A stretch of 42,560 nt of DNA from a virus (lineage: Duplodnaviria; Caudoviricetes), in IMG/VR virus record IMGVR_UViG_3300030330_000262, positions 1-42,560 of that record; one strand, given 5' to 3'. The notes beneath the pieces were generated by a model that saw only the letters and a list, made by a program, of their open reading frames with translations, had not been told where the DNA came from and did not search any database. A program made the translations under genes and the position numbers. Of the stretch, positions 1,038 to 41,250 are shown piece by piece. Within the stretch, counting starts at the first letter, position 1. Every line of letters begins with the position of its first letter.

Positions 1038-3484
1038 TGGCTATAGAAAAAGGCACAGGTGCTGGCGGTGATAATGTCATCCCTATGAATACACAGGAAC
1101 AGATAGATATTCTTGAAATGCCTGTTGAGCCTGGTCAAGTAACAATGGATGATGGCTCTGTTATTGTTGGCGACATCACTGAAGAAATGATGGCAGCAGA
1201 AGTGCCAGTAGAAATACCCTTTAACTCTAACCTCGTTGATTTTATGGATGAGGCAGAAACCACAGCTATCGCCTCTGACTTGGTTGGTGAGATTGAGGAT
1301 GACTTGTCATCTCGTGAGGATTGGGAAGAAGTTTACAAAAGAGGCATTGATCTTCTTGGTATGAATTATGAAGACAGATCGCAGCCATTTGAAGGCGCAT
1401 CTGGTGTAGTTCATCCTCTTTTAGCCGAATCAGTTACACAGTTTCAGGCGCAGGCTTATCGTGAATTATTGCCTTCTGGCGGACCTGTTCGCACACAGAT
1501 AATTGGTGATCAGAACAAAGAAGTCTTAGCGCAAGCTGAACGTGTTAAAAACTATATGAATTATCAAATTACTTATGAAATGGAGGAGTATGATCCTGAA
1601 CTGGACCAAATGCTTTTCTACCTTCCTATTATAGGCTCTACTTTTAAAAAGATTTACTTTGATCCTCTCTTGCAAAGAGCTGTATCTAAGTTTGTTCATG
1701 CTGAAGACCTCATTGTTCCTTACAGCGCAACTGATTTAGCATCAGCAACACGCATTACGCATGTTGTTAAGATGGATAAAAACGAGATAAGAAAGCTACA
1801 GCTTACAGGCTTTTACGCTGATATAGACCTGCCTGGAGATGGCTATGGAGATGAAGATTACTCTAATGTAAAAGAAACCATAGATGAAATACAGGGCATT
1901 TCTCCATCAGGATCCAGCGAAGAGGTAACATTGTATGAGGTTCATACAAATTTAGACTTGTCTGGGTTTAAAGATGTAGATGCAAATGGTGAAGAGACTG
2001 AGTTAAAGCTTCCATATATCGTAACAATTGTAGAGAAAAGTGGCAAAGTTCTGGCGATTCGCCGTAATTACGATGAAACAGATCCTTTGCGCCGTTCTAA
2101 GCCTTACTTTGTGCATTACAAGTTTTTGCCTGGTTTAGGTTTTTACGGTTTTGGCCTTACACATATGATTGGCGGACTGTCTCAAGCAGCAACTAGCCTG
2201 TTAAGACAGCTAATTGATGCTGGCACCCTGTCCAACCTCCCAGCGGGGTTCAAGGCTCGTGGCGCTCGTATCCGTGACGAGGACGAACCACTAAACCCTG
2301 GTGAGTTTCGTGACATTGACGTTGCGGGTATGGACATCCGCCAATCGCTTATGACGCTGCCATTTAAAGAACCCTCTCAGACGCTATATTCGCTCTTAGG
2401 CACGCTTGTTGATTCTGGTCGTAGATTTGCATCTTTAGCTGATATGAAAGTCGCAGAGATGGGTGGAGAGACACCTGTAGGTACAACTATGGCGATTATG
2501 GAACGCGGCACAAAAGTTATGTCTGCAATTCACAAGCGCTTGCATTATTCACAAAAAGTTGAATTTAAGCTTTTAGCTAACGTGTTTGCTAGATTTATGG
2601 CTCCCATGTACCCATACGCGATACCAGGCGCACCGCCAGAGATTAAGGTTGCAGATTTTGATGATCGTATAGATGTTTTGCCTGTATCAGATCCTAACAT
2701 TTTTTCTATGTCACAGCGGATTGCCTTAGCCCAAACAGAACTACAATTGGTTCAGTCAAACCCAGAGATACATGGAAACGAACAAGGTTTGTACCAAGCT
2801 TATCGCAAAATGTATGAAGCACTAGGAGTTACAAATGTCGATGCGATCTTACCTCCACCTCCTGCTCCTCAACCTACGAATCCAGCTAAGGAAAACCAAG
2901 AGGCAATGCGCGGAAAAGCTCTACAAGCTTTTCCAGAACAAAATCATCAAGCTCATATTGAATCCCATTTGGCGATTATTGCAACGCCTGTGGCGCAAGC
3001 TAACGCAGCGATAGTTATGACCTTGCAGGGCCATGTTCAGGAACATCTTGGATTTATGGCTGAGGCTATGGCGCAAGAAGAGATTATAAATCAATTGTCT
3101 CCTGAAGAGCAAATGCAACTTCAATCTTCACAAGAGGGGATTATGGCATTCCAGACAGAAGTTGCTTCTCGTGCGGCAGAGTTGATTGGCGAGCTTACAG
3201 AGCAATATGCACAGGCTGTCACGCCTCCGCCACAAACAGATCCCCTTGTTGCTATACGTCAACAGGAGCTAGCATTGCGTGAAGCTGACATTCAGCGCAG
3301 ATCTGAAGAGGCGAAAGACAGAGCGCAGCTTGACCGTGAAAAAGAATTGAATGATCAAGTAGAGGCTCAAACACGTTTAGGCATTCAACAAGAGGCTCTT
3401 AATCAAAAAACAAGAGTTGCAGAAGAGCGTATTCAAACTCAAAGAGATATTGCCGCTCTTAATAACATGACGAAAGGTCGATAA
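1037..3484 (+). CDS. Portal protein (P22-like)
   Basis: 815 aa; HPLLAESVTQFQAQAY, FLPGLGFYGFGL and LRQLIDAGTLSNLP motifs typical of marine podovirus portals; coiled-coil C-terminal barrel; heads the morphogenesis operon. Confidence 0.9.
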   Translation: MAIEKGTGAGGDNVIPMNTQEQIDILEMPVEPGQVTMDDGSVIVGDITEEMMAAEVPVEIPFNSNLVDFMDEAETTAIASDLVGEIEDDLSSREDWEEVYKRGIDLLGMNYEDRSQPFEGASGVVHPLLAESVTQFQAQAYRELLPSGGPVRTQIIGDQNKEVLAQAERVKNYMNYQITYEMEEYDPELDQMLFYLPIIGSTFKKIYFDPLLQRAVSKFVHAEDLIVPYSATDLASATRITHVVKMDKNEIRKLQLTGFYADIDLPGDGYGDEDYSNVKETIDEIQGISPSGSSEEVTLYEVHTNLDLSGFKDVDANGEETELKLPYIVTIVEKSGKVLAIRRNYDETDPLRRSKPYFVHYKFLPGLGFYGFGLTHMIGGLSQAATSLLRQLIDAGTLSNLPAGFKARGARIRDEDEPLNPGEFRDIDVAGMDIRQSLMTLPFKEPSQTLYSLLGTLVDSGRRFASLADMKVAEMGGETPVGTTMAIMERGTKVMSAIHKRLHYSQKVEFKLLANVFARFMAPMYPYAIPGAPPEIKVADFDDRIDVLPVSDPNIFSMSQRIALAQTELQLVQSNPEIHGNEQGLYQAYRKMYEALGVTNVDAILPPPPAPQPTNPAKENQEAMRGKALQAFPEQNHQAHIESHLAIIATPVAQANAAIVMTLQGHVQEHLGFMAEAMAQEEIINQLSPEEQMQLQSSQEGIMAFQTEVASRAAELIGELTEQYAQAVTPPPQTDPLVAIRQQELALREADIQRRSEEAKDRAQLDREKELNDQVEAQTRLGIQQEALNQKTRVAEERIQTQRDIAALNNMTKGR

Positions 3485-5670: not shown

Positions 5671-5864
5671 TGGACGTTATTGCCTTAACAGAGCATTTAT
5701 TAAAGAACATACGTCAGCAAAAAGAGGACTACACGACAATGCTGGCGAATGGTGCGGTAGAAGATATGGAAAACTACCGATTTGTGGTGGGTCAAATACG
5801 CGGACTGACTTACTGTGAAGAAGAAATAAGAGCCGCGATGAAAGGTGTCATTGAAGATGGCTAA
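5670..5864 (+). CDS. Conserved hypothetical phage protein
   Basis: 64 aa with YRFVVGQIRGL motif, directly upstream of GroES. Confidence 0.75.
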   Translation: MDVIALTEHLLKNIRQQKEDYTTMLANGAVEDMENYRFVVGQIRGLTYCEEEIRAAMKGVIEDG

Positions 5865-6342
5865 AAAACTATTCGTGCCTGAAAGGGTTGCGGCAAATAT
5901 GAAGTCTGACACGCCACAGACTAAAATCCCAAAGGCGATTGAAAAGGCTTTACCAGAGCAAGAAGAAAACAAAAACACAGAAAATCCAGAAAATATGGAT
6001 GTTTCTGCCCTTGATAGATTGCCAAACCCTGTAGGTTATAGGCTTTTGGTAATCCCATATTACCCCCCAGCCAAGACAAAAGGCGGTATTTATGTGCCAG
6101 ATGCTACTCGTGACAGAGAAGCATTTGCAACAGTTGCAGCGTATGTTGTTAAGGTTGGCCCTGACGCATATAAAGACCAAGACAAGTTCCCCTCTGGCGC
6201 TTGGGCGCATGAGAAATCTTGGGTTCTTATGGGAAGATATGCTGGAAATAGGTTCAAAGTGGAGGGTCTTGAGGTTCGTCTCATAAATGACGATAATATT
6301 ATCGCCACTATACTTGACCCAGCAGATATCTCATATGTATAA
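5857..6342 (+). CDS. groES: GroES-like co-chaperonin (Cpn10) with N-terminal extension
   Basis: PVGYRLLV...KTKGGIYVPD...VVKVGPDAY...YAG..FKVEG.EVRLINDDNIIA match the Cpn10 signature. Confidence 0.85.
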   Translation: MAKKLFVPERVAANMKSDTPQTKIPKAIEKALPEQEENKNTENPENMDVSALDRLPNPVGYRLLVIPYYPPAKTKGGIYVPDATRDREAFATVAAYVVKVGPDAYKDQDKFPSGAWAHEKSWVLMGRYAGNRFKVEGLEVRLINDDNIIATILDPADISYV

Positions 6343-11762: not shown

Positions 11763-12032
11763 ATGGCTATGAAGAAAAAAGGCTACCGTGCTGGTGGCAA
11801 AGTTAAAAAAATGGCTAAAGGTGGCGCTGCTGGCGGCAAGAAAATGAGAAGAATGGCTAAAGGTGGTGCTGCTGGTGGCAAAAAGATAAGAAGAATGTCC
11901 AAGGGTGGCGCTATGGGCGGCAAAAAAGTCAGAAGAATGTCTAAAGGTGGAACCGCTGGCGGCAAGAAAATGACTGTTGCACAACTTCGTTCTGCTGCTA
12001 AAAAGCTAGGATACAAAGTATCTAAAGCATAA
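11763..12032 (+). CDS. Basic repeat protein
   Basis: AAGGAG RBS; four copies of a 14-aa M(A/S)KGGxxGGKKxRR repeat. Confidence 0.75.
   Translation: MAMKKKGYRAGGKVKKMAKGGAAGGKKMRRMAKGGAAGGKKIRRMSKGGAMGGKKVRRMSKGGTAGGKKMTVAQLRSAAKKLGYKVSKA
11811..11972 (+). repeat. Coding tandem repeat, 42 nt x about 4
   Basis: Unit starts at 11811, 11853, 11895 and 11937. Confidence 0.85.
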
Positions 12033-12709
12033 TGCCATATTTATATAGCAATGTTCCCTACTTTAAGGCATGGGTGCGGCGCGAGTATACTCATAACCAT
12101 GAGGACTATCATGGTGAGTTTTTGCACGCAATGGTCGTTGGCGTAACGTCCATGCCTAACAGATGTCTAAGTTTCCAAGTTATGTTTACTGGAAGTGAAG
12201 CAGAAGGTGAGGAAGAAGATACGGTACATGGAGGTGCAATGTGGGCTAGAATGCCCATAACCGCTCTAGTTGCTGATATACCTTTAGAGGAATGGCCTGA
12301 ACCAATGAACACATATGATGCTCAACCTTGGGATTGTTCATCACATAATCACGCTGTTTATGTGATAGACCGAGCTACGCCCTGCCCTTGGTTGGCTAAA
12401 ATAGATAGTGAGTTTTTTCCTGCAAAGTATCTTTTTACAGTAGATTACTCCGAGTCTGAGATAGCAGATGATCCAGCACAGCATAAACAAAGTCATGTTT
12501 TGCAACTGCTTGATGCTGGTGAATGGACAGGAAACATTGTTGCCCTGCCTAATAATCGTGTAAGGGTTACACACCCTGCTTGGTTTGAAACAGGCGAAGG
12601 TGCGCCACATTTCAAGCCCTCTCAGCATATACACTATTCAAAAAGTGATTTAGACTATACACTAGATGTAAATAGGATATTTGATAACCTTTACAATGAG
12701 GAAGAGTGA
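12032..12709 (+). CDS. Conserved hypothetical phage protein
   Basis: 225 aa; GGAMWARMPI, QPWDC, QHKQSHV and ALPNNR motifs; coupled at both ends. Confidence 0.8.
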   Translation: MPYLYSNVPYFKAWVRREYTHNHEDYHGEFLHAMVVGVTSMPNRCLSFQVMFTGSEAEGEEEDTVHGGAMWARMPITALVADIPLEEWPEPMNTYDAQPWDCSSHNHAVYVIDRATPCPWLAKIDSEFFPAKYLFTVDYSESEIADDPAQHKQSHVLQLLDAGEWTGNIVALPNNRVRVTHPAWFETGEGAPHFKPSQHIHYSKSDLDYTLDVNRIFDNLYNEEE

Positions 12710-32826: not shown

Positions 32827-33408
32827 TTATATCCATTGAATGCTAGGTTGGTCTACGTCTTTTTTAAACCTGTTTATTTTCCAAACAAACCATGCCATAG
32901 CTGTCTTACCGCTACCATACCAAGCTGATTCGTGGTCGCCTCTAATTAAAGTTAGTCTTTTGGTATGGACCAGAACAGTGTCTGGTGGCGTGTGTTGAAA
33001 AATCTCCTCATATCTTTTCTGACCTTCGAGAAAAGCTAGACGAAGTAGAAAAATAAATCCCTCTCCATCTTTGCTTTGTTCTTGCAGTTTATACGCATGT
33101 TTAACAAATTCATTTGCCAACTTGTACGGGGGGTTGGTCACAATCCACGGCGCTAAACTCTTTTGCTCCATTAGAAAGTCTATGTTGCGTAAATCACCAT
33201 AGCCACGGTCCACAAGATCAGTGCTGTATGTTTTTATACTATGATCTTTTAAAACCTCTGATATATGCCCCTCACCACAAGCAGGCTCCCATACATCATA
33301 CGATGTTTGATTATTATTGCATAACAACCACGGGCAGCAATCAATCATCTTCTTGGTTGCGTCAGGCGGGGTTGGATAATAATCGTCTTTTTCTCTGCTG
33401 CTATCCAA
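32827..33408 (-). CDS. DNA amino-methyltransferase (probably N6-adenine)
   Basis: DYYPTP, VWEPACGEG (motif I), IVTNPPY (motif IV), LLRLAFLE. Confidence 0.85.
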   Translation of the reverse strand: MDSSREKDDYYPTPPDATKKMIDCCPWLLCNNNQTSYDVWEPACGEGHISEVLKDHSIKTYSTDLVDRGYGDLRNIDFLMEQKSLAPWIVTNPPYKLANEFVKHAYKLQEQSKDGEGFIFLLRLAFLEGQKRYEEIFQHTPPDTVLVHTKRLTLIRGDHESAWYGSGKTAMAWFVWKINRFKKDVDQPSIQWI

Positions 33409-34020: not shown

Positions 34021-34458
34021 ATGACTGATATCGAATCAGTGCGTGAGTCTGATCTGTCTGAACTTTATGTTTTAAAAAAGCAGCTTGAGCAGACAATCTC
34101 TGACGCACAACAAAAAGTTAAAATTATTAAAGATGTTCTTGAGTCCAGGTATCTTGAGAGGGCGCAAAATAAATTGCGTCAAGATGGCAAGGACTTTGGT
34201 AGCGTGGTTTTGCAGGACAAAGATTTTAGGATTAAAATCAACATTCGTAAGAAGGTTGAGTGGGATCCTGATAAAACTATCAGCGTTCTAAACAACATGG
34301 ACGAAGATACTGCAAGGCACTACGCCACAGTTAAGTACACAATTCCTGAAGCTAAGTTTAACAATGCTCCGCCTGATATTAAGGCAGTGCTGAGTGAAGC
34401 TAGAACCGTGCATCTGCAAGGTATTAGCGTTGATTTGGAAAGGGAAGAAGATGCTTAA
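34021..34458 (+). CDS. Conserved hypothetical protein of the recombination module
   Basis: AAGGAG RBS before the ATG at 34021; GKDFG and KKVEWD motifs. Confidence 0.75.
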   Translation: MTDIESVRESDLSELYVLKKQLEQTISDAQQKVKIIKDVLESRYLERAQNKLRQDGKDFGSVVLQDKDFRIKINIRKKVEWDPDKTISVLNNMDEDTARHYATVKYTIPEAKFNNAPPDIKAVLSEARTVHLQGISVDLEREEDA

Positions 34459-35311
34459 CATTATCACCGCTGAACAAAGATTGAACGAAAAGAAGGGCCA
34501 TAAGCTTGTGGTTTGTGGCCCCTCTGGGGTGGGCAAGACTTCTCTTGCCCGAACCCTTGACCCCTCTAAAACATTGTTTATGGATTTAGAGGCTGGTGAT
34601 GCTGCTATCGAGGGCGTGGCTATTGATGTCATTCGCCCACGAACATGGCAAGAGTGCCGTGATTTCGCAGTTTTTCTTGGTGGGCCTAATCCTTCTTTAG
34701 GTGAAGAGGCTACATACAGCCAAGCGCATTATGAATATGTTGTGCAGACTTATGGGGATCCCTCAGAGGTTCTGTCTAAGTATGATACCTTATTCGTTGA
34801 TTCGATTACGGTTGCTGGACGTTTGTGTTTTACATATTGCACTAATCAACCTGAGTGTAAATCAGATCGCACTGGTAAGTTAGATACCAGAGCGGCGTAT
34901 GGTATGCAGGGTAGAGAGATGATGGGCTGGCTATCACATTTACAACATATCAGAGACAAGAATGTCGTATTCGTTGGCATTCTTGACGAAAGAGTTGATG
35001 ATTACGGGCGGCAGATTTATGAACTACAGATTGAAGGTTCAAAGACAGGCCGTGAACTACCTGGAATCGTTGATGAAGTTATTACGATGGCTGTCATGTC
35101 TAGTGACAATGGAAGCCCGTATAGAGCCTTTGTATGTCAAACGCTAAACCAGTGGGGCTATCCTGCCAAGGATAGGTCTGGTAGGCTCGATCTCCTAGAA
35201 GAACCACACCTTGGTAGACTTCTAGAAAAAATGTCAGGGGGTGAGCCACAGGCAGAACGCCCGATGAATTTTGTAAACCCAAATGAAGTAGAGGACGAAA
35301 CCAATGCTTAA
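34451..35311 (+). CDS. Sak4-like AAA_24 ATPase (ssDNA annealing)
   Basis: Walker A GPSGVGKT, Walker B LFVDSIT, YPAKDRSGRL. Confidence 0.8.
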   Translation: MLNIITAEQRLNEKKGHKLVVCGPSGVGKTSLARTLDPSKTLFMDLEAGDAAIEGVAIDVIRPRTWQECRDFAVFLGGPNPSLGEEATYSQAHYEYVVQTYGDPSEVLSKYDTLFVDSITVAGRLCFTYCTNQPECKSDRTGKLDTRAAYGMQGREMMGWLSHLQHIRDKNVVFVGILDERVDDYGRQIYELQIEGSKTGRELPGIVDEVITMAVMSSDNGSPYRAFVCQTLNQWGYPAKDRSGRLDLLEEPHLGRLLEKMSGGEPQAERPMNFVNPNEVEDETNA

Positions 35312-35969
35312 TCTAAATGAAATCCCTGTGTCTGAATCAAGCAATGAACCATTGCCGTTGATTCCAGATGGCACGATTGTTCGTGGTGTTTTAATGTTTG
35401 AAGGGGGTGATCATATCAAACCTGAATTTTCTCAAAGCGCCATGTTTTTTAAAAAATCCCAAAGCACTAGTGCTGAATGGATGCCTATCGCAATGACCAT
35501 TGTTGGTGGTGAGTATGATAGGCGTAAAGTCTGGCAGAATATTTTTGTTCATGGCGATGCCATTGATGAGAAAACTGGTGTGTCAAAAGCAAGGCTTATT
35601 GGGCTGAATACAATTCGTGATATTGTAAACAGCGCACATGGCTTGGATGCAAATGACATGTCACCAGAGGCGCAAGCTAAACGTCAGATCAATGGCGTTG
35701 AAGATTTACAGGGCATGGAAGTGTGTTTTGTAGTTGGTATTGAGAAGTCTAATGATCCTCAATATAAAGACAAAAACCGTGTTAAGTCTTTCTTGCCAGC
35801 AAATAGCCCATCCTTTATTCCGCCAAATGCTTCTGGCGGGGCTTTAGGAGCGCCTACAGCGGCTCCTATGCCTCCAAAGGTTCAACAGGCTATGAACGCA
35901 CAGATGCCTCCTGCAACGGCTCAAAACGCCAGCAATGCGGGTATCACGCCAGCTTGGGCAAAAAGTTAA
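35304..35969 (+). CDS. Putative single-stranded DNA-binding protein
   Basis: Follows Sak4; LIPDGT, GEYDRRKVW and KNRVK motifs; Pro/Ala-rich tail ending PAWAKS. Confidence 0.65.
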   Translation: MLNLNEIPVSESSNEPLPLIPDGTIVRGVLMFEGGDHIKPEFSQSAMFFKKSQSTSAEWMPIAMTIVGGEYDRRKVWQNIFVHGDAIDEKTGVSKARLIGLNTIRDIVNSAHGLDANDMSPEAQAKRQINGVEDLQGMEVCFVVGIEKSNDPQYKDKNRVKSFLPANSPSFIPPNASGGALGAPTAAPMPPKVQQAMNAQMPPATAQNASNAGITPAWAKS

Positions 35970-35975
35970 CTTTAA

Positions 35976-36047
35976 TGGCGTACTAACGGCATCTCCTTCA
36001 TGAGTCGTTAGCTGGTTTGGGTGGCACCAGTGCCGTAAAGCCACCCA
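35976..36047 (+). ncRNA. Candidate structured RNA / pseudoknot in the SSB-RAMP intergenic region
   Basis: Stems CTAACGGC(35983-90)/GTCGTTAG(36004-11) and TGGGTGGC(36018-25)/GCCACCCA(36040-47); CTGGT(36012-16) can pair with ACCAG(36026-30). Confidence 0.45.
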
Positions 36048-36080
36048 CCTTAAATTTTACAGAAATACTGGAGGGTAAAA

Positions 36081-36839
36081 ATGGCTGTAAAGAAAACAAA
36101 TGATTCAATTAGCATTCCTGTGATCAAGCAGGGTACGATTAAATTACGTTTGATTGGTCAAACGCCAATGTACTTTAATAGTATGTCGTCTAAAGCTAAG
36201 AGAGACTTACTCGTTGGCGCAGGTCGTAAGACTGCGGCTGAGAAAAAAGAGATCAAGCATAATCCAGAGCAAGAGTTTATTGACTCTATGCACACGCAAA
36301 TGAAGGGCGATACTTTACTGTGTTTCCCAGCGGCTGGTGTAAAAGGTGCAATGGCTACTGCTGCGCTTGAAACTGCTGGTGTAAATAAAACTAGCGTAAA
36401 TAGACTAATCTTCTTACCGCAAACCAATATTAATATTTGGGGTAAGCCGTACCTTAAAATTGACGTGGTTCGCTCTGCTGATATGAACCGCACACCAGAT
36501 ATGCGTACTCGCGCTTATCTTCCTAATTGGTGTGCGGAAGTAGAGATTAGGTTTGCTACGCCTAACTTTAGTGCGATGTCTATTTCGTCTTTGGTGCAGA
36601 ACGCTGGTCAGTTAGTTGGGCTGGGTGATTTCCGCCAAGAAAAAGGCAGAGGTTCTTTTGGTACGTTCACCATTACAGGATCTGAAGACCTTGGTGATCA
36701 TAAAGACTTCTGGGATGAAATGATGGAGGAAGGTCGCGCAGTGCAAGAATTGTCGCGAGATAATCCAGAATGTGCTGATGAAGAAACAGCAGAACTGATG
36801 CAGTTCTTGCAAGAAGAGCGGTTGCGGAGGGCTGCTTAA
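36081..36839 (+). CDS. Stand-alone Cas7/RAMP-like protein; putative effector of an RNA-guided system
   Basis: N-terminal strand IKLRLIGQTPM; LCFPAAGVKGAM (cf. RAMP IPGSSxKG); C-terminal Gly-rich loop VGLGDFRQEKGRGSFGTF; GGAGG RBS. Confidence 0.75.
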   Translation: MAVKKTNDSISIPVIKQGTIKLRLIGQTPMYFNSMSSKAKRDLLVGAGRKTAAEKKEIKHNPEQEFIDSMHTQMKGDTLLCFPAAGVKGAMATAALETAGVNKTSVNRLIFLPQTNINIWGKPYLKIDVVRSADMNRTPDMRTRAYLPNWCAEVEIRFATPNFSAMSISSLVQNAGQLVGLGDFRQEKGRGSFGTFTITGSEDLGDHKDFWDEMMEEGRAVQELSRDNPECADEETAELMQFLQEERLRRAA

Positions 36840-36846
36840 ACTATTA

Positions 36847-36866
36847 GGCGGGGGTTTCCCCCCGCC
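36847..36866 (+). promoter_or_regulatory. GC hairpin at the 5' end of the array
   Basis: Perfect 8-bp stem GGCGGGGG-TTTC-CCCCCGCC; no U-tract. Confidence 0.6.
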
Positions 36867-36872
36867 ACGGGT

Positions 36873-37260
36873 TGCGGTTATCTATGGATAGGTCTGGCAT
36901 GTCGAGGCGGTTATGGAGAGGCATGGCACGAAAAGTCATGTTTCTTTGTGGTAAGTCTAGGCGGTTGAGTCATGTTGCGTTTCGGTTGGGTCTCGTAAGG
37001 TTCGGTTGGGTAAGTTCTGGCGGTTAAGGCTGGATAGGCAAGGCGGGGTAGGGTCCGTCACGGCACGGCTAGGCGCAGTCAGGTTGGGCTGGGCGAGGCG
37101 GTTGAGTTGAGTTTTGTTATGCCGAGATGCGGCTTGGTGGGTTTAGGCGGTTTTGGTCTGATATGGTCTGTCGCGCTAGGGTTAGGACGGGCTTGGTACG
37201 GCACGGCGGTTTCGGTATGTTCAGGTCTGGTAGGGTTACATGGGGTTGGGCATGGCGGTT
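36873..37260 (+). ncRNA. Non-coding array of GGCGGTT-delimited units made of G(G/T)Y-NN pentamers (putative guide RNAs)
   Basis: GGCGGTT at 36906, 36960, 37019, 37097, 37146, 37205 and 37254 (TGCGGTT at 36873); spacings 33, 54, 59, 78, 49, 59, 49; 5-nt periodicity inside units. Confidence 0.8.
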
Positions 37261-37281
37261 AATTTTTAAAAGGAGAATGTA

Positions 37282-37791
37282 ATGAGTAATTTTGCGAAAA
37301 AAACAAAACAGAGGATCATTGATGGGTATCTGCAAGCTACTGGGCTAAACATTTACAAGCCAGATGAATTTGTTGATTGGTTAGCTGAACAGCCCGACCA
37401 TGAGGCGTATGATGCTTTTTATGGCATGGATGACAGTGTAGCGGCTCGTAACTGGCGCATCGATAAAGCGCGGCAGATGGCAAGCGGCTTACGGATTGTT
37501 GTTAAACAAGAGGATGTAACGCAGAGCGAAGTTATTTCGATTAAGGTCACTGAATATCCGGCCTACATTTCACCTGTTGCTACACGAAAGTCAGGCGGTG
37601 GTTATGAGCGGTTTGACCCTAAAGATGAAGCAGCGCAGCAAGAGTTAAGAAAACAGGCTGGAGTTTATTTAGCGGGATGGCTTGGTCGTTTTAGGGGCGC
37701 GGCTGAAAATGCTGGTTTAGACTTAACGTCAGTTGAATATATTGTTAGGGTTTTAAGAGACGATAAAGATGAGAAGCTAGAGGCTGGATAA
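37282..37791 (+). CDS. Hypothetical protein; candidate accessory of the RAMP/array system
   Basis: AAGGAG RBS directly after the last repeat; HEAYDAFYGMDDSVAARNWRIDKARQM motif. Confidence 0.75.
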   Translation: MSNFAKKTKQRIIDGYLQATGLNIYKPDEFVDWLAEQPDHEAYDAFYGMDDSVAARNWRIDKARQMASGLRIVVKQEDVTQSEVISIKVTEYPAYISPVATRKSGGGYERFDPKDEAAQQELRKQAGVYLAGWLGRFRGAAENAGLDLTSVEYIVRVLRDDKDEKLEAG

Positions 37792-37792
37792 A

Positions 37793-38071
37793 ATGCGCGG
37801 TGAAATAAACGTAGTTATGTTTTTTGCTGATAAAGAGGTGAAGAACATAAAAGCTTTTATCAAATTAAATGAAAACTTTGGTGATGAAGATATAATAGAT
37901 GAAATGTCTAATTTTATTGATTCTGTTATTAAACAGCACAGAGATAAATTTAGGATGGGCATAGCTACTCTAATGGTAGGTGGAGATGAACTTTTCCAGT
38001 TATCTTTCTCTAATAAACGAGGCAGAAGTTTATGGAACCTAACGATACCAGACGAAACAACAGTGCATTAA
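37793..38071 (+). CDS. Hypothetical protein
   Basis: 92 aa AT-rich ORF in the operon. Confidence 0.55.
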   Translation: MRGEINVVMFFADKEVKNIKAFIKLNENFGDEDIIDEMSNFIDSVIKQHRDKFRMGIATLMVGGDELFQLSFSNKRGRSLWNLTIPDETTVH

Positions 38072-38274
38072 AAGAAGTTGCAAATTGTTTTGAGAATATA
38101 GGCTGGGAAAAAAGGTTATGTGATTTACAGGAGCGAGAAGTTCTTGGGCTTATAGCCATCATACAAAAAGCGAGGGATCTAACAGATGACTATACAGAAC
38201 AGGGCGTTCTTGAATTTGAACAGAGTGTCACCCGTGTTGACGAACCCTTCTTTGACGACCCAATTCCATTCTGA
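38032..38274 (+). CDS. Hypothetical protein (DUF6511-like)
   Basis: IGWEKRLCDL motif; C-terminal DDPIPF; precedes the Cas4-like nuclease. Confidence 0.65.
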   Translation: MEPNDTRRNNSALKEVANCFENIGWEKRLCDLQEREVLGLIAIIQKARDLTDDYTEQGVLEFEQSVTRVDEPFFDDPIPF

Positions 38275-38977
38275 TGCCATCGAACTTATTTCCTACGAAA
38301 TAGACAGAGCCATCTGCGAAAAAAACGACACTCAACCACAGAGGACGTATTTAGGTGGCTCTTCTTTAGGCAGCCCGTGTTCACGACAAGTTCAGTATAG
38401 ATATATGCAAGTTAAACCAGATGAAGACAAAATGTTTTCAGCAAGAACTTTGCGTATTTTTGATATGGGTCACTTCATTGAGGACTTACTGGCTAAGTAT
38501 ATTAAAGAAGCAGGTTTTGATTTAAAGACACATGACTCTAATGGCAAACAGTTCGGGTTCTCTGTAGCAAATGAACAGATAAGGGGTCACATTGACGGCG
38601 TTATATGCTCTGGCCCTGTTACCATGTCATACCCAATGCTATGGGAGTGTAAGTCCGCTAACAGCAGGAAGTTTAATGAATTTGTTCGCAAGGGAGTTGC
38701 TGTTGCGAATCCTACTTATGCGGGGCAAATAGCACTGTATCAGGCATATATGGATTTATATGAAAACCCAGCCTTGTTTACTGTTTTAAACAAAGATACA
38801 AGTGAGATTTACTACGAGCTTGTTCCCTTTGACAGAGAGCTTGCCCAGAAGATTAGCGATAAAGGTGTAGAGATTTTAAAGGCAACAAAAGCAAATGAGA
38901 TGTTGCCGCGTGTGGCGGTTAATTCAGATTATTTTACTTGCAAATATTGTGAGTTTCGCCAGACTTGTTGGTCATAG
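38186..38977 (+). CDS. Cas4-like PD-(D/E)XK exonuclease with Fe-S cysteines
   Basis: GSPCSRQ...GHIDG...WECKS...QIALY...CKYCEFRQTC; true start may be the GTG/TTG at 38234/38237. Confidence 0.8.
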   Translation: MTIQNRAFLNLNRVSPVLTNPSLTTQFHSDAIELISYEIDRAICEKNDTQPQRTYLGGSSLGSPCSRQVQYRYMQVKPDEDKMFSARTLRIFDMGHFIEDLLAKYIKEAGFDLKTHDSNGKQFGFSVANEQIRGHIDGVICSGPVTMSYPMLWECKSANSRKFNEFVRKGVAVANPTYAGQIALYQAYMDLYENPALFTVLNKDTSEIYYELVPFDRELAQKISDKGVEILKATKANEMLPRVAVNSDYFTCKYCEFRQTCWS

Positions 38978-39075
38978 AAAAAGGGGCCGCCAGTTAATAC
39001 CTGAGCAGACCCCTTTAGTGTGAGAACGAAATCAGATGTTAAGGAAAACAAAAAACTGAGTTCAGGTACAATATA

Positions 39076-41250
39076 ATGAGTGTTTTACGTTTTGACAATA
39101 CTAAATATGGTAGCGCCCATGAATTAGTTCAGAAGATTAGCGATGAGGTTCCGCGTTCTGTTCAGATAAGCATTTTGCAGGAAACTTATCCTAACGGTAG
39201 GATTCGGGGTCATGATTTCTTTATCGGGTCACTGGCGGGTGAAGCTGGTGAAAGTTTAAAGATAGATATCAACCCCAGTAGTCCACATTTCATGCGTGGG
39301 CAGGACTTTAATGGCGGCGAGGGAATCGGCGGAATCGTTAAGATTTTGATGGAGGCCCGTGGTATGCGGCTGCCTGAAATCAAAGAAATGTTCGGGTCTT
39401 ATTTATCAGATGATGTCAGACCAGTTGTTAATGAACCATCTTGGCGTATGCCTAACGGGGGCATTGATTTAAATAGTTTGCCTGTTCAAGCAGAAGATCA
39501 AAAAGAAAAAGTTCGGATTGATGCTGCAACAGAACATAACGGTCAGTGGGACTATATCAGTCGGGACGGTGAGGTATTAGTAACTGTTCGCCGTTATGAT
39601 ATCGGTGGCAAGAAAGAGTTCCGTCCGTGGATTCCAGGCGTTAACTACCCAAAAGCTCCTGATGTTCGGCCTCTGTATAATATCCCGAACATTTTAGACC
39701 AGCAGCGGGTTGTCTGGGTAGAAGGCGAGAAGTGCGCCCAAGCTTTAATTGATGCTGGTATTACAGCTACATGCACACTGGGAGGTGCTGGTGCTTTAAC
39801 CAGAAAGAACGCAGATAAGTTTGATTTCACACCTCTTCGGGGCAAAGAATTAATTATATGGCCTGATAACGATGACGCGGGTAGAAGGCTTGCTGAAATT
39901 GTTCGGGAAGTGGCGCTCGATGCTGATGCTGACAGCGTTACTATACTACATCCGCCTGCTGGCAAGCCGCCCAAATGGGATGCTGCTGATGCGATAGCAG
40001 AGGGTTTGGACATAGATGAGTTTATCAACAACGGTGTTGGGCATACGCACAAAGCTATTAATCTTCTTAACGATAGCCTTCTTATATCTAGGTTTACAGG
40101 TAGTGCGCCTGTTCAAAACTTCTTAATTGACGGGACTTTTCCGTTGGGTGTGCCAATCATATTCGCTGCCGCAGGTGACGCAGGTAAGGGCATGATGACC
40201 CTTGATCTATCTATGAAGGTGGCATCTGGAAAGCCGTTGCAGAACGCTTTCGGGGGTACAGTAAAAGAGTTCGGGGATGTGGTTATCTTCACTGCTGAAG
40301 ATGATGAGGCGGAGATGCACAGACGTATTGAGAGATTGGATGAAGCAGGCGAGAGGTTTGATTACCCGAACAAATTACATGTTGTGCCGCTGCCAAATGT
40401 CGGTGGCGTGTTTCCTATCTTACGCGATAACATGGGTGATTACTCAGAAACAGATGAGTTTAAAAAGATTTACGAACAAATTTTACAGCTTAGTAATTTA
40501 AAGCTTATTGTATTTGACCCGTTGGCATCTTTCGTTCATGCGGATGTAAATGCTGATCCTGCCGCAGGTGCAGCTTTAACCGGATTACTGTCTAGGGTGG
40601 CAACAGAAACAGGTTCATCTGTTATTGTATGTCATCATATGACCAAGGTGCAGGGTGATAAGGTTATATCAAAGCCTGAAGAGGCTCGTAATTTGATTCG
40701 GGGTACGTCAGCTTTAGTTGATGGTGTTCGTTCTGCTTTTGCGCTATGGCAAGTAGATGAAAAGACTTCAGTTGGTCGATGCAACGACTTAGGGGTTACC
40801 TATGAGCGTAATCGGTGTTTTGATGGTGCTGTTGTTAAATCTAATGGCCCTGCCAGCAGGCACATAAGACATTTTGTTCGGGATATGCTCACAGGTCTAC
40901 TTGAGGACAGGACCGAACAAATTAGAAACTTGGGCCAAAGCAATCAGGCACACTTACGCAAAGATGCGATGTTTAACTGGATTGCTGACTGTGAACGTAA
41001 CGGTCGGGCTTTGTGTCAGCAGGGTGGAGCAGATGGCATAATAAACAGGCTCACCGACCCAGAAACACCAGAGATATTAAGAGGTCTAGGTCAATCGACC
41101 ATAGACAGAATTGTTCGGGATTTAATCAACGAGCGGCGTGTTGAGAAGTATTCGTTCAGCACGGCTGGTGGTCGCAAGTGGCTTGGAACTACAAACGGCG
41201 TGATGAGTCGGGGTGAATATGAAGCGGTTACAGCGAGGGATAATGTATAA
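39076..41250 (+). CDS. Primase-helicase (TOPRIM + AAA_25/RepA-like helicase)
   Basis: VWVEGEKCA, IWPDNDDAG and WDAAD (TOPRIM); AAAGDAGKG Walker A, LIVFDP Walker B, HHMTK, RGTSAL. Confidence 0.85.
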   Translation: MSVLRFDNTKYGSAHELVQKISDEVPRSVQISILQETYPNGRIRGHDFFIGSLAGEAGESLKIDINPSSPHFMRGQDFNGGEGIGGIVKILMEARGMRLPEIKEMFGSYLSDDVRPVVNEPSWRMPNGGIDLNSLPVQAEDQKEKVRIDAATEHNGQWDYISRDGEVLVTVRRYDIGGKKEFRPWIPGVNYPKAPDVRPLYNIPNILDQQRVVWVEGEKCAQALIDAGITATCTLGGAGALTRKNADKFDFTPLRGKELIIWPDNDDAGRRLAEIVREVALDADADSVTILHPPAGKPPKWDAADAIAEGLDIDEFINNGVGHTHKAINLLNDSLLISRFTGSAPVQNFLIDGTFPLGVPIIFAAAGDAGKGMMTLDLSMKVASGKPLQNAFGGTVKEFGDVVIFTAEDDEAEMHRRIERLDEAGERFDYPNKLHVVPLPNVGGVFPILRDNMGDYSETDEFKKIYEQILQLSNLKLIVFDPLASFVHADVNADPAAGAALTGLLSRVATETGSSVIVCHHMTKVQGDKVISKPEEARNLIRGTSALVDGVRSAFALWQVDEKTSVGRCNDLGVTYERNRCFDGAVVKSNGPASRHIRHFVRDMLTGLLEDRTEQIRNLGQSNQAHLRKDAMFNWIADCERNGRALCQQGGADGIINRLTDPETPEILRGLGQSTIDRIVRDLINERRVEKYSFSTAGGRKWLGTTNGVMSRGEYEAVTARDNV

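Follow-up and report, generated by a model that had tools for sequence, protein, structure and literature searches.

The DNA analysed here, called the window in the following, is a stretch of 42,560 nucleotides from a phage genome that is estimated to be 74% complete. The phage is a marine one, and profile scans of its open reading frames identify the portal as SU10-like and also give Sak4, a primase-helicase and a Cas4-domain exonuclease. The portal shares 40-51% identity with the portals of Pelagibacter HTVC023P/027P, DSL-LC04 and Roseobacter CRP-901/902, by which the host is not fixed. A replication block at 34394-41250 contains a Sak4-like annealase, a phrog_2300 protein, DUF6511, the Cas4-domain exonuclease and a Toprim/AAA_25 primase-helicase, and within it sits a cassette that we assign to VIPR, an RNA-guided DNA silencer related to CRISPR and first described in 2026 (10.64898/2026.04.26.720920). 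The features of the cassette (all on the + strand) and further genes of the window are listed below, where NN stands for the two free bases of each pentamer and the named sites are the candidate targets.

36081..36839, +, vipr gene for a stand-alone RAMP/Cas7-fold protein of 252 aa, assigned by fold and kinship to SUSP1 Vipr
36847..36866, +, GC-rich hairpin between the vipr stop and the array, from folding
36877..36909, +, unit 1, short and guide-like, 6-7 NN; no target found
36910..36963, +, guide 2, 10 NN; sense; MDMTNISVNY motif of class II ribonucleotide reductase (RNR)
36964..37022, +, guide 3, 11 NN; antisense; LRFHDLRHEAI catalytic motif of tyrosine integrases
37023..37100, +, guide 4, 15 NN with one 4-nt repeat; sense; KLYKGSPTTYAQWCE of T7-like endonuclease I
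37101..37149, +, guide 5, 9 NN; sense; DDFIDALGY nuclease motif of the terminase large subunit; weaker
37150..37208, +, guide 6, 11 NN; antisense; VNRYLASISK of a 288-aa tyrosine integrase of T7-like temperate phages
37209..37257, +, guide 7, 9 NN; antisense; positions about -2 to 24 of tRNA-Arg genes
37271..37275, +, AGGAG, ribosome-binding site of the accessory gene, read from the sequence about 10 nt past the last repeat
37282..37791, +, accessory (vap-like) gene, 169 aa; 3' of the array in every one of the 67 informative loci
5845-6342, GroES-like gene
12032-12709, PHROG 'ferredoxin' auxiliary gene
32827-33408, DNA methyltransferase
38186-38977, Cas4-domain phage exonuclease, 400 bp 3' of the cassette, from a profile scan

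The first-pass annotation had stated that the window holds neither a canonical CRISPR nor cas1/2/3/5/6/8/10. This agrees with our results, as Tandem Repeats Finder gave no CRISPR-like array and no match to these genes occurred among the scanned selection of open reading frames of the 74% complete genome; a Cas4-domain exonuclease is present, though. An Rfam match or an outstanding sigma-70 promoter was not found in the window either. The RNA data comprise two runs with a word share of 0.06 and three short contigs of relatives at a depth of about 3. A 42-nt tandem repeat of 3.9 copies at 11789-11973 resembles a coding repeat rich in Lys, Met, Gly and Ala.

The Vipr-like protein and the accessory protein

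The open reading frame of 252 residues and the RAMP hallmark motifs described earlier are both present, and the structural comparison proposed at that time was carried out. Our AlphaFold model (pLDDT 79.5) finds its best Foldseek matches in Csm3/Cas7 (E 5e-6), and the VIA structural alignment to Csm3/Cas7 subunits covers 156 residues with a Z of 9.3 and an rmsd of 3.8. The top PDB sequence match, and the sole one of note, is the Vipr protein of Escherichia phage SUSP1 (profile E 4.9e-4). Both proteins belong to PHROG 4652, and hhalign gives 94% across the thumb and the G-loop. In SUSP1 Vipr the residues R138, D177, W178 and R179 are reported to hold the scaffold bases (10.64898/2026.04.26.720927). 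Their counterparts in the alignment are R144, D183, F184 and R185, three of which are invariant in 64 homologues while F184 is nearly so. Judged by sequence and model, the product of 36081-36839 is a Vipr relative with a RAMP fold.

The Vipr family is large, with 1292 matches in one search and 2970 clusters at 50% identity in another. A close Vipr was not found in cultured phages, where the best match has 30% identity. Distant homologues with about 28-30% identity occur in the Gordonia phages UmaThurman, Ecliptus, Pipp and ODay (H1-H5).

The accessory protein is predicted to be mostly helical with one beta-hairpin (pLDDT 85.6). Pfam, NCBIfam, the ESM Atlas, Foldseek against the PDB and VIA gave neither a family nor a fold, and BFVD gave one unnamed match (E 1.8e-4). 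Compared with Vap1 of SUSP1, the hhalign probability is 0.2% and the PHROG is a different one; a remote kinship is possible.

Organization of the array

A GC hairpin had been noticed behind the RAMP gene, and it is indeed found there. The 41-nt stretch around it folds with -19.7 kcal/mol (z -2.05), and a hairpin of differing sequence occurs at the same place in the 11 related leaders examined, which were every fourth distinct leader. A T-run terminator was not called at the hairpin, which is predicted to be an RNA-end or a processing/stability element. Three related loci (L014, L018 and L035) have a longer structured leader (ACATGGGGCAACGC...) instead of a GC hairpin directly after the vipr stop, and several related arrays start with a ACGGAAAGACGG element.

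The array extends from about 36870 to 37261. Its identity at a lag of five nucleotides is 0.437 compared to 0.295 +/- 0.022, a value that none of 2000 dinucleotide shuffles reached. It contains 49 G[GT]Y-NN-G[GT]Y pairs, whereas the shuffles contain 8.3 on average (maximum 18) and the rest of the window, on either strand, not more than six per 400-nt stretch. The pentamer consists of G (95%), G or T (66% and 27%, together 93%), a pyrimidine (95%) and the two free bases. The non-coding array of about 390 nt with five-nucleotide periodicity which the first-pass annotation had described is thus well founded. One refinement is that the array is made up of seven separate guides and not of one periodic RNA.

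These are separated by eight GCGGTT junctions, seven of which read GGCGGTT, into units of 33, 54, 59, 78, 49, 59 and 49 nt. Five of the seven are of length 5n-1, and so are 288 out of 343 distinct units between strict junctions in the clade. The units adjoin at the 7-nt junction, and no invariant structured 3' tail follows the guides. Cutting at the GGCGGTT junctions, or close to them, would presumably release the individual guides. As the start and the end of a guide are fixed in this array, its processing is directly testable. Shared and chimeric units occur in different orders, which suggests recombination at the junctions as a possible source of guides.

A length of 5n-2, meaning one 4-nt repeat each, is seen in 42 of the 343 distinct clade units, and the short repeat of guide 4 seems to be short of one scaffold base rather than of an N. 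Guides 2-7 carry 9-15 NN each. In guide 2, only three of the ten scaffolds are GGY. Long hairpins are predicted for guide 2 (36910-36963) and for guide 7 together with the following leader (37209-37281), with z -3.4 and -3.6; the odd scaffolds of guide 2 (TTT, GAA, GTC) are located in the hairpin stem.

Decoded guides and controls

For the decoding the NN letters were joined by one free base, according to the published rule (10.64898/2026.04.26.720920). Some guide positions were left out of the search pattern and checked afterwards in the matches; we refer to them as withheld bases. In this way six of the seven guides decode from their sequence under the 1-nt-skip code, guide 5 being the weaker case. 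The idea that the NN letters form a non-contiguous recognition code had been put forward before, and the published skip gives it a concrete shape.

All 99 matches of guide 2 are sense, in codon phase and located in phage class II RNR, and 36 of them agree in 20 out of 20 bases. Of the 99, 36 have TC and 62 have AG at the withheld codon. These are two spellings of serine, and both are borne by guide 2 variants of the window and its relatives. The closest cultured carriers of one guide 2 target protein are the Roseobacter phages CRP-3 and CRP-212 with 19/20 each. The targets can thereby be named in a cultured marine phage, CRP-3, which is HMO-2011-type; phages of this type are reported to rank with the most abundant ones of marine viromes (PMC6918029).

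Of the 25 IMG/VR matches of guide 3, 24 read the HxLRH motif of tyrosine integrases in antisense, and eight of the 25 are complete (22/22), four withheld bases included. For guide 4, 85 of 120 among the matches listed (about 240 are estimated) fall into one cluster, T7-like endonuclease I; the withheld positions TA, TG and GA occur in 85, 95 and 82 of the 120, respectively. The best match (in L467) is 30/30. The first NN of this guide was parsed across the 4-nt repeat after the targets had been seen, and the remaining 14 share one register. Guide 5 has 79 out of 90 matches in one terminase cluster, mostly of one phage family, and was searched without withheld bases.

The six metagenome matches of guide 6 all agree in 20 out of 22 bases with the 288-aa integrase, and in each of them it is the last NN that fails to match; a T7-like RNA polymerase gene lies near in three of the six. 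Guide 6 had no match in viral contigs (18 bases) or bacterial genomes (22 bases). The matched loci (L547-L552) are marine elements in which two tyrosine integrase genes lie in tandem. Guide 7 points to tRNA-Arg in 120 of 120 viral matches listed, 103 of them UCU, and in 117 of 121 bacterial matches listed (about 4000 stretches are estimated), many from Alphaproteobacteria. An exact guide 7 site is also present in the tRNA-Arg(ACG) gene of E. coli (L627). Variants of this guide are found in carriers down to about 70% Vipr identity.

In unit 1 the NN letters are kept and the scaffold letters drift across 14 related units. When the unit is parsed in a way that the analyst chose, one 14/14 match lies where CRP-3 gp60 begins; the 12-nt core is present in only one of 50 competitor genomes, and no target is assigned to unit 1.

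In all five guides against protein genes, the skipped base is the wobble position. Because this holds on both strands, with three sense and two antisense guides, the guides point to a DNA target.

It must be kept in mind that gapped patterns of 18 bases give chance matches. A shuffled guide 2, the only shuffled pattern scanned on the full collection, gave eight matches in four unrelated contexts compared to 99 for the real guide; the counts themselves are non-independent, being clustered in phage families. In an out-of-sample test, 207 guides of the clade were compared with the target loci, the sites already searched being masked, and matches of at least 90% were counted. A skip of one gave ten matches, skips of zero, two and three gave one, none and one, and the shuffled guides gave one. 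One of the ten is a guide 7 variant on another tRNA and non-independent. The clade guides thus meet neighbouring T7-like replication genes mostly with a skip of one. The best matches are in codon phase and lie in genes for endonuclease I, RNR and a gp2.5-type SSB; at a primase zinc-finger site 23 of 26 bases agree. On CRP-3, four of 258 clade guides match with a skip of one, none with other skips and 0.2 when shuffled. The guide 4 site is present within two mismatches in 4 of 27 contigs with an RNR target (reversed control: 0). Within the window, in a genome 74% complete, the best self matches of guides 2-7 reach 75% or less. The 218 clade guides compared with the vipr flanks of relatives and the window show no excess under any skip, and therefore the guides are not aimed at close kin there.

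We also considered that the array is decayed or a structural repeat and that its matches are chance hits on abundant conserved motifs. The degenerate scaffolds and the eight matches of the shuffled control would fit this. It is nevertheless extremely unlikely and largely ruled out: the withheld bases are recovered (22/22, 30/30), the codon phase is kept, the out-of-sample signal is specific for the skip, and guides persist in carriers whose backbones differ.

Related loci and the function of the cassette

We collected 80 related viral loci, 67 of which have at least 900 nt downstream and form the informative set. The first-pass annotation had asked whether homologues are followed by a periodic array and a similar accessory gene, and both are present in all 67; in the window, the gene of 169 aa also has the expected ribosome-binding site near the last repeat. 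The gene upstream of the cassette is common to only 8 out of 61 related loci and a close downstream Cas4-like gene to only 7 out of 49, and PHROG scans of six loci gave several different replication modules. Since the array and the accessory gene are constant and their neighbours differ, the cassette likely moves between phage backbones. Guide families, too, are common to carriers with different backbones. The repertoire of the clade comprises 258 distinct guide segments in 166 families and represents a readable record of the phages that compete in the ocean. The NN letters change at a rate of 5-10% and scaffold positions 2-3 at 18-20%, in pairs chosen by NN identity, so that this difference is not evidence.

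The likeness to VIPR that the first-pass annotation had pointed out is correct, as fold, SUSP1 kinship, layout and code agree. All VIPR features open to a computational test are found in the locus: a stand-alone RAMP protein related to Vipr, adjacent pentamers of the GGY/NN type (9-16 per guide in VIPR, 9-15 NN in guides 2-7), a minimal locus with an accessory gene and without a CRISPR array (67/67 loci), and the NN code with a skip of one, read on either strand and mostly at the wobble base (by computation only). The kind of system is already published. Closest to it are the published staggered VIPR arrays (10.64898/2026.04.26.720920), which have the same lone RAMP protein and accessory gene, are phage-borne and carry tail-less guides that overlap by one nucleotide, as do the 5n-1 units found here. 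The text of that report contains no target search and no experiment on staggered arrays, whereas six of the seven guides are decoded here, so that there is now evidence, at the level of sequence, for the same 1-nt-skip code in VIPR arrays of the staggered, tail-less kind. New are the decoded target set and the tRNA guide; VIPR and staggered arrays are not.

The type II VIPR of SUSP1 likewise belongs to PHROG 4652, has conserved thumb and G-loop residues in common with the window protein and skips one wobble nucleotide, and in both systems a recombinase active site is among the decoded targets. The cassette differs from it by the array lying between vipr and the accessory gene, by the absence of the pseudoknot tail typical of type II, and by a Vipr about 55 aa longer with extra C-terminal helices. 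Its accessory gene is not detectably Vap1, whereas SUSP1 carries vap1, and its units adjoin directly, whereas long spacers separate the SUSP1 guides. Its scaffold is G(G/T)Y, often non-canonical with 27% T at the second position, whereas silencing by SUSP1 needed GGY; non-canonical VIPR scaffolds have already been noted (10.64898/2026.10.21.760802). Finally, its decoded targets are several unrelated phage groups and a tRNA gene, whereas SUSP1 targets one satellite. With Cas7/Csm3 of class 1 CRISPR systems the protein shares the RRM core, the thumb and the glycine-rich loop. Unlike these systems with their repeats, spacers and cas effectors, the cassette has a five-nucleotide step and a non-contiguous code, and no repeat-spacer array with cas5/6/8/10 was found among the selected open reading frames of the 74% complete genome.

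We therefore propose, with high confidence, that this is a VIPR cassette with 1-nt-skip guides on sites of rival phages and tRNA-Arg, whose Vipr polymerises, binds DNA and represses during co-infection. The kinship to SUSP1 Vipr lets us transfer silencing and binding mode by analogy. As in SUSP1, Vipr would coat each guide with one protomer per pentamer, and the complex would bind double-stranded DNA on either strand without a PAM and block transcription of the target, with the accessory protein helping the silencing. The cassette is presumably transcribed together with the early/replication block. A T7-like or HMO-2011-type phage that enters the same cell would be stalled by the guides against RNR and endonuclease I, and in relatives by those against genes for SSB, primase, helicase and polymerase. 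With the two integrase guides, resident prophages would be prevented from excising, in analogy to what is reported for the satellite recombinase in the SUSP1 system (10.64898/2026.10.15.759431). The system thus likely silences rival temperate and T7-like marine phages, with which the carrier presumably shares a cell.

The same recognition could have a destructive output: once the site is bound, the rival DNA would be cut or degraded, either by the accessory protein or by the nearby Cas4-like exonuclease. VIPR types III-V carry predicted nucleases or helicases (10.64898/2026.04.26.720920), the accessory protein is without an assigned fold, and the exonuclease gene lies only 400 bp downstream. 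We nevertheless regard this output as improbable, given that searches with the accessory protein yielded no nuclease family, that the Cas4-like gene is rarely close to related cassettes and likely belongs to a Sak4/SSB/Cas4 replication block, and that cutting a host tRNA gene would be costly. Still less probable is a complex that acts mainly on RNA in the manner of Csm3 and pairs with mRNA or tRNA. Type III Csm3/Cmr subunits are indeed the closest folds, and guides 3, 6 and 7 are complementary to the transcript; guides 2, 4 and 5, however, read like mRNA and pair only with the template DNA strand, and SUSP1 Vipr is reported to bind double-stranded DNA (10.64898/2026.04.26.720920; 10.64898/2026.04.26.720927).

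Within the proposed silencing of DNA, guide 7 may act on the host chromosome. It can be read as directed against the tRNA gene of another phage group, against a host tRNA gene as integration site, or towards control of host translation. In 50 contigs matched by other guides the exact site is absent, and three have it with two mismatches. This speaks for a target on the host chromosome or in a distinct group of phages, without being decisive. The 120 viral matches listed are all whole tRNA genes, with an integrase detectable within the fetched flank in only one, and no tRNA was found beside the integrases of guide 3 or guide 6. An attP fragment of competitor phages is therefore unsupported as the target. 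A host attB site is a possible target; T7-like pelagiphages are reported to use tRNA genes as integration sites, in one case tRNA-Arg (10.1101/410191). The portions of the VIPR preprints that were searched, as distinct from their supplementary target tables, contain no mention of a tRNA-gene target.

More tentatively, and as a possibility we hold to be rather doubtful, the cassette common to unrelated marine backbones could represent a family-wide antiviral immunity, to which a conserved guide on the host tRNA-Arg gene is added. Its guides would then be fixed on motifs that phage groups such as the HMO-2011-type and the T7-like temperate phages cannot change, and the tRNA-Arg guide would occupy the integration/excision site or throttle host translation. 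If true, a phage would here control a tRNA gene of its host by means of an RNA guide.

A second guide family (GT GT CC GG GG GG TT/CT GA) is found in four related loci (L009, L014, L016 and L028) and is possibly an attP/attB guide; it is too short to be sure. It matches the 3' end of tRNA-Leu(TAA) at 13-14 of 16 bases, and it agrees in 13 of 16 with a remnant resembling a tRNA 3' end that lies close to the integrase in CRP-3 (position 3170) and in CRP-212.
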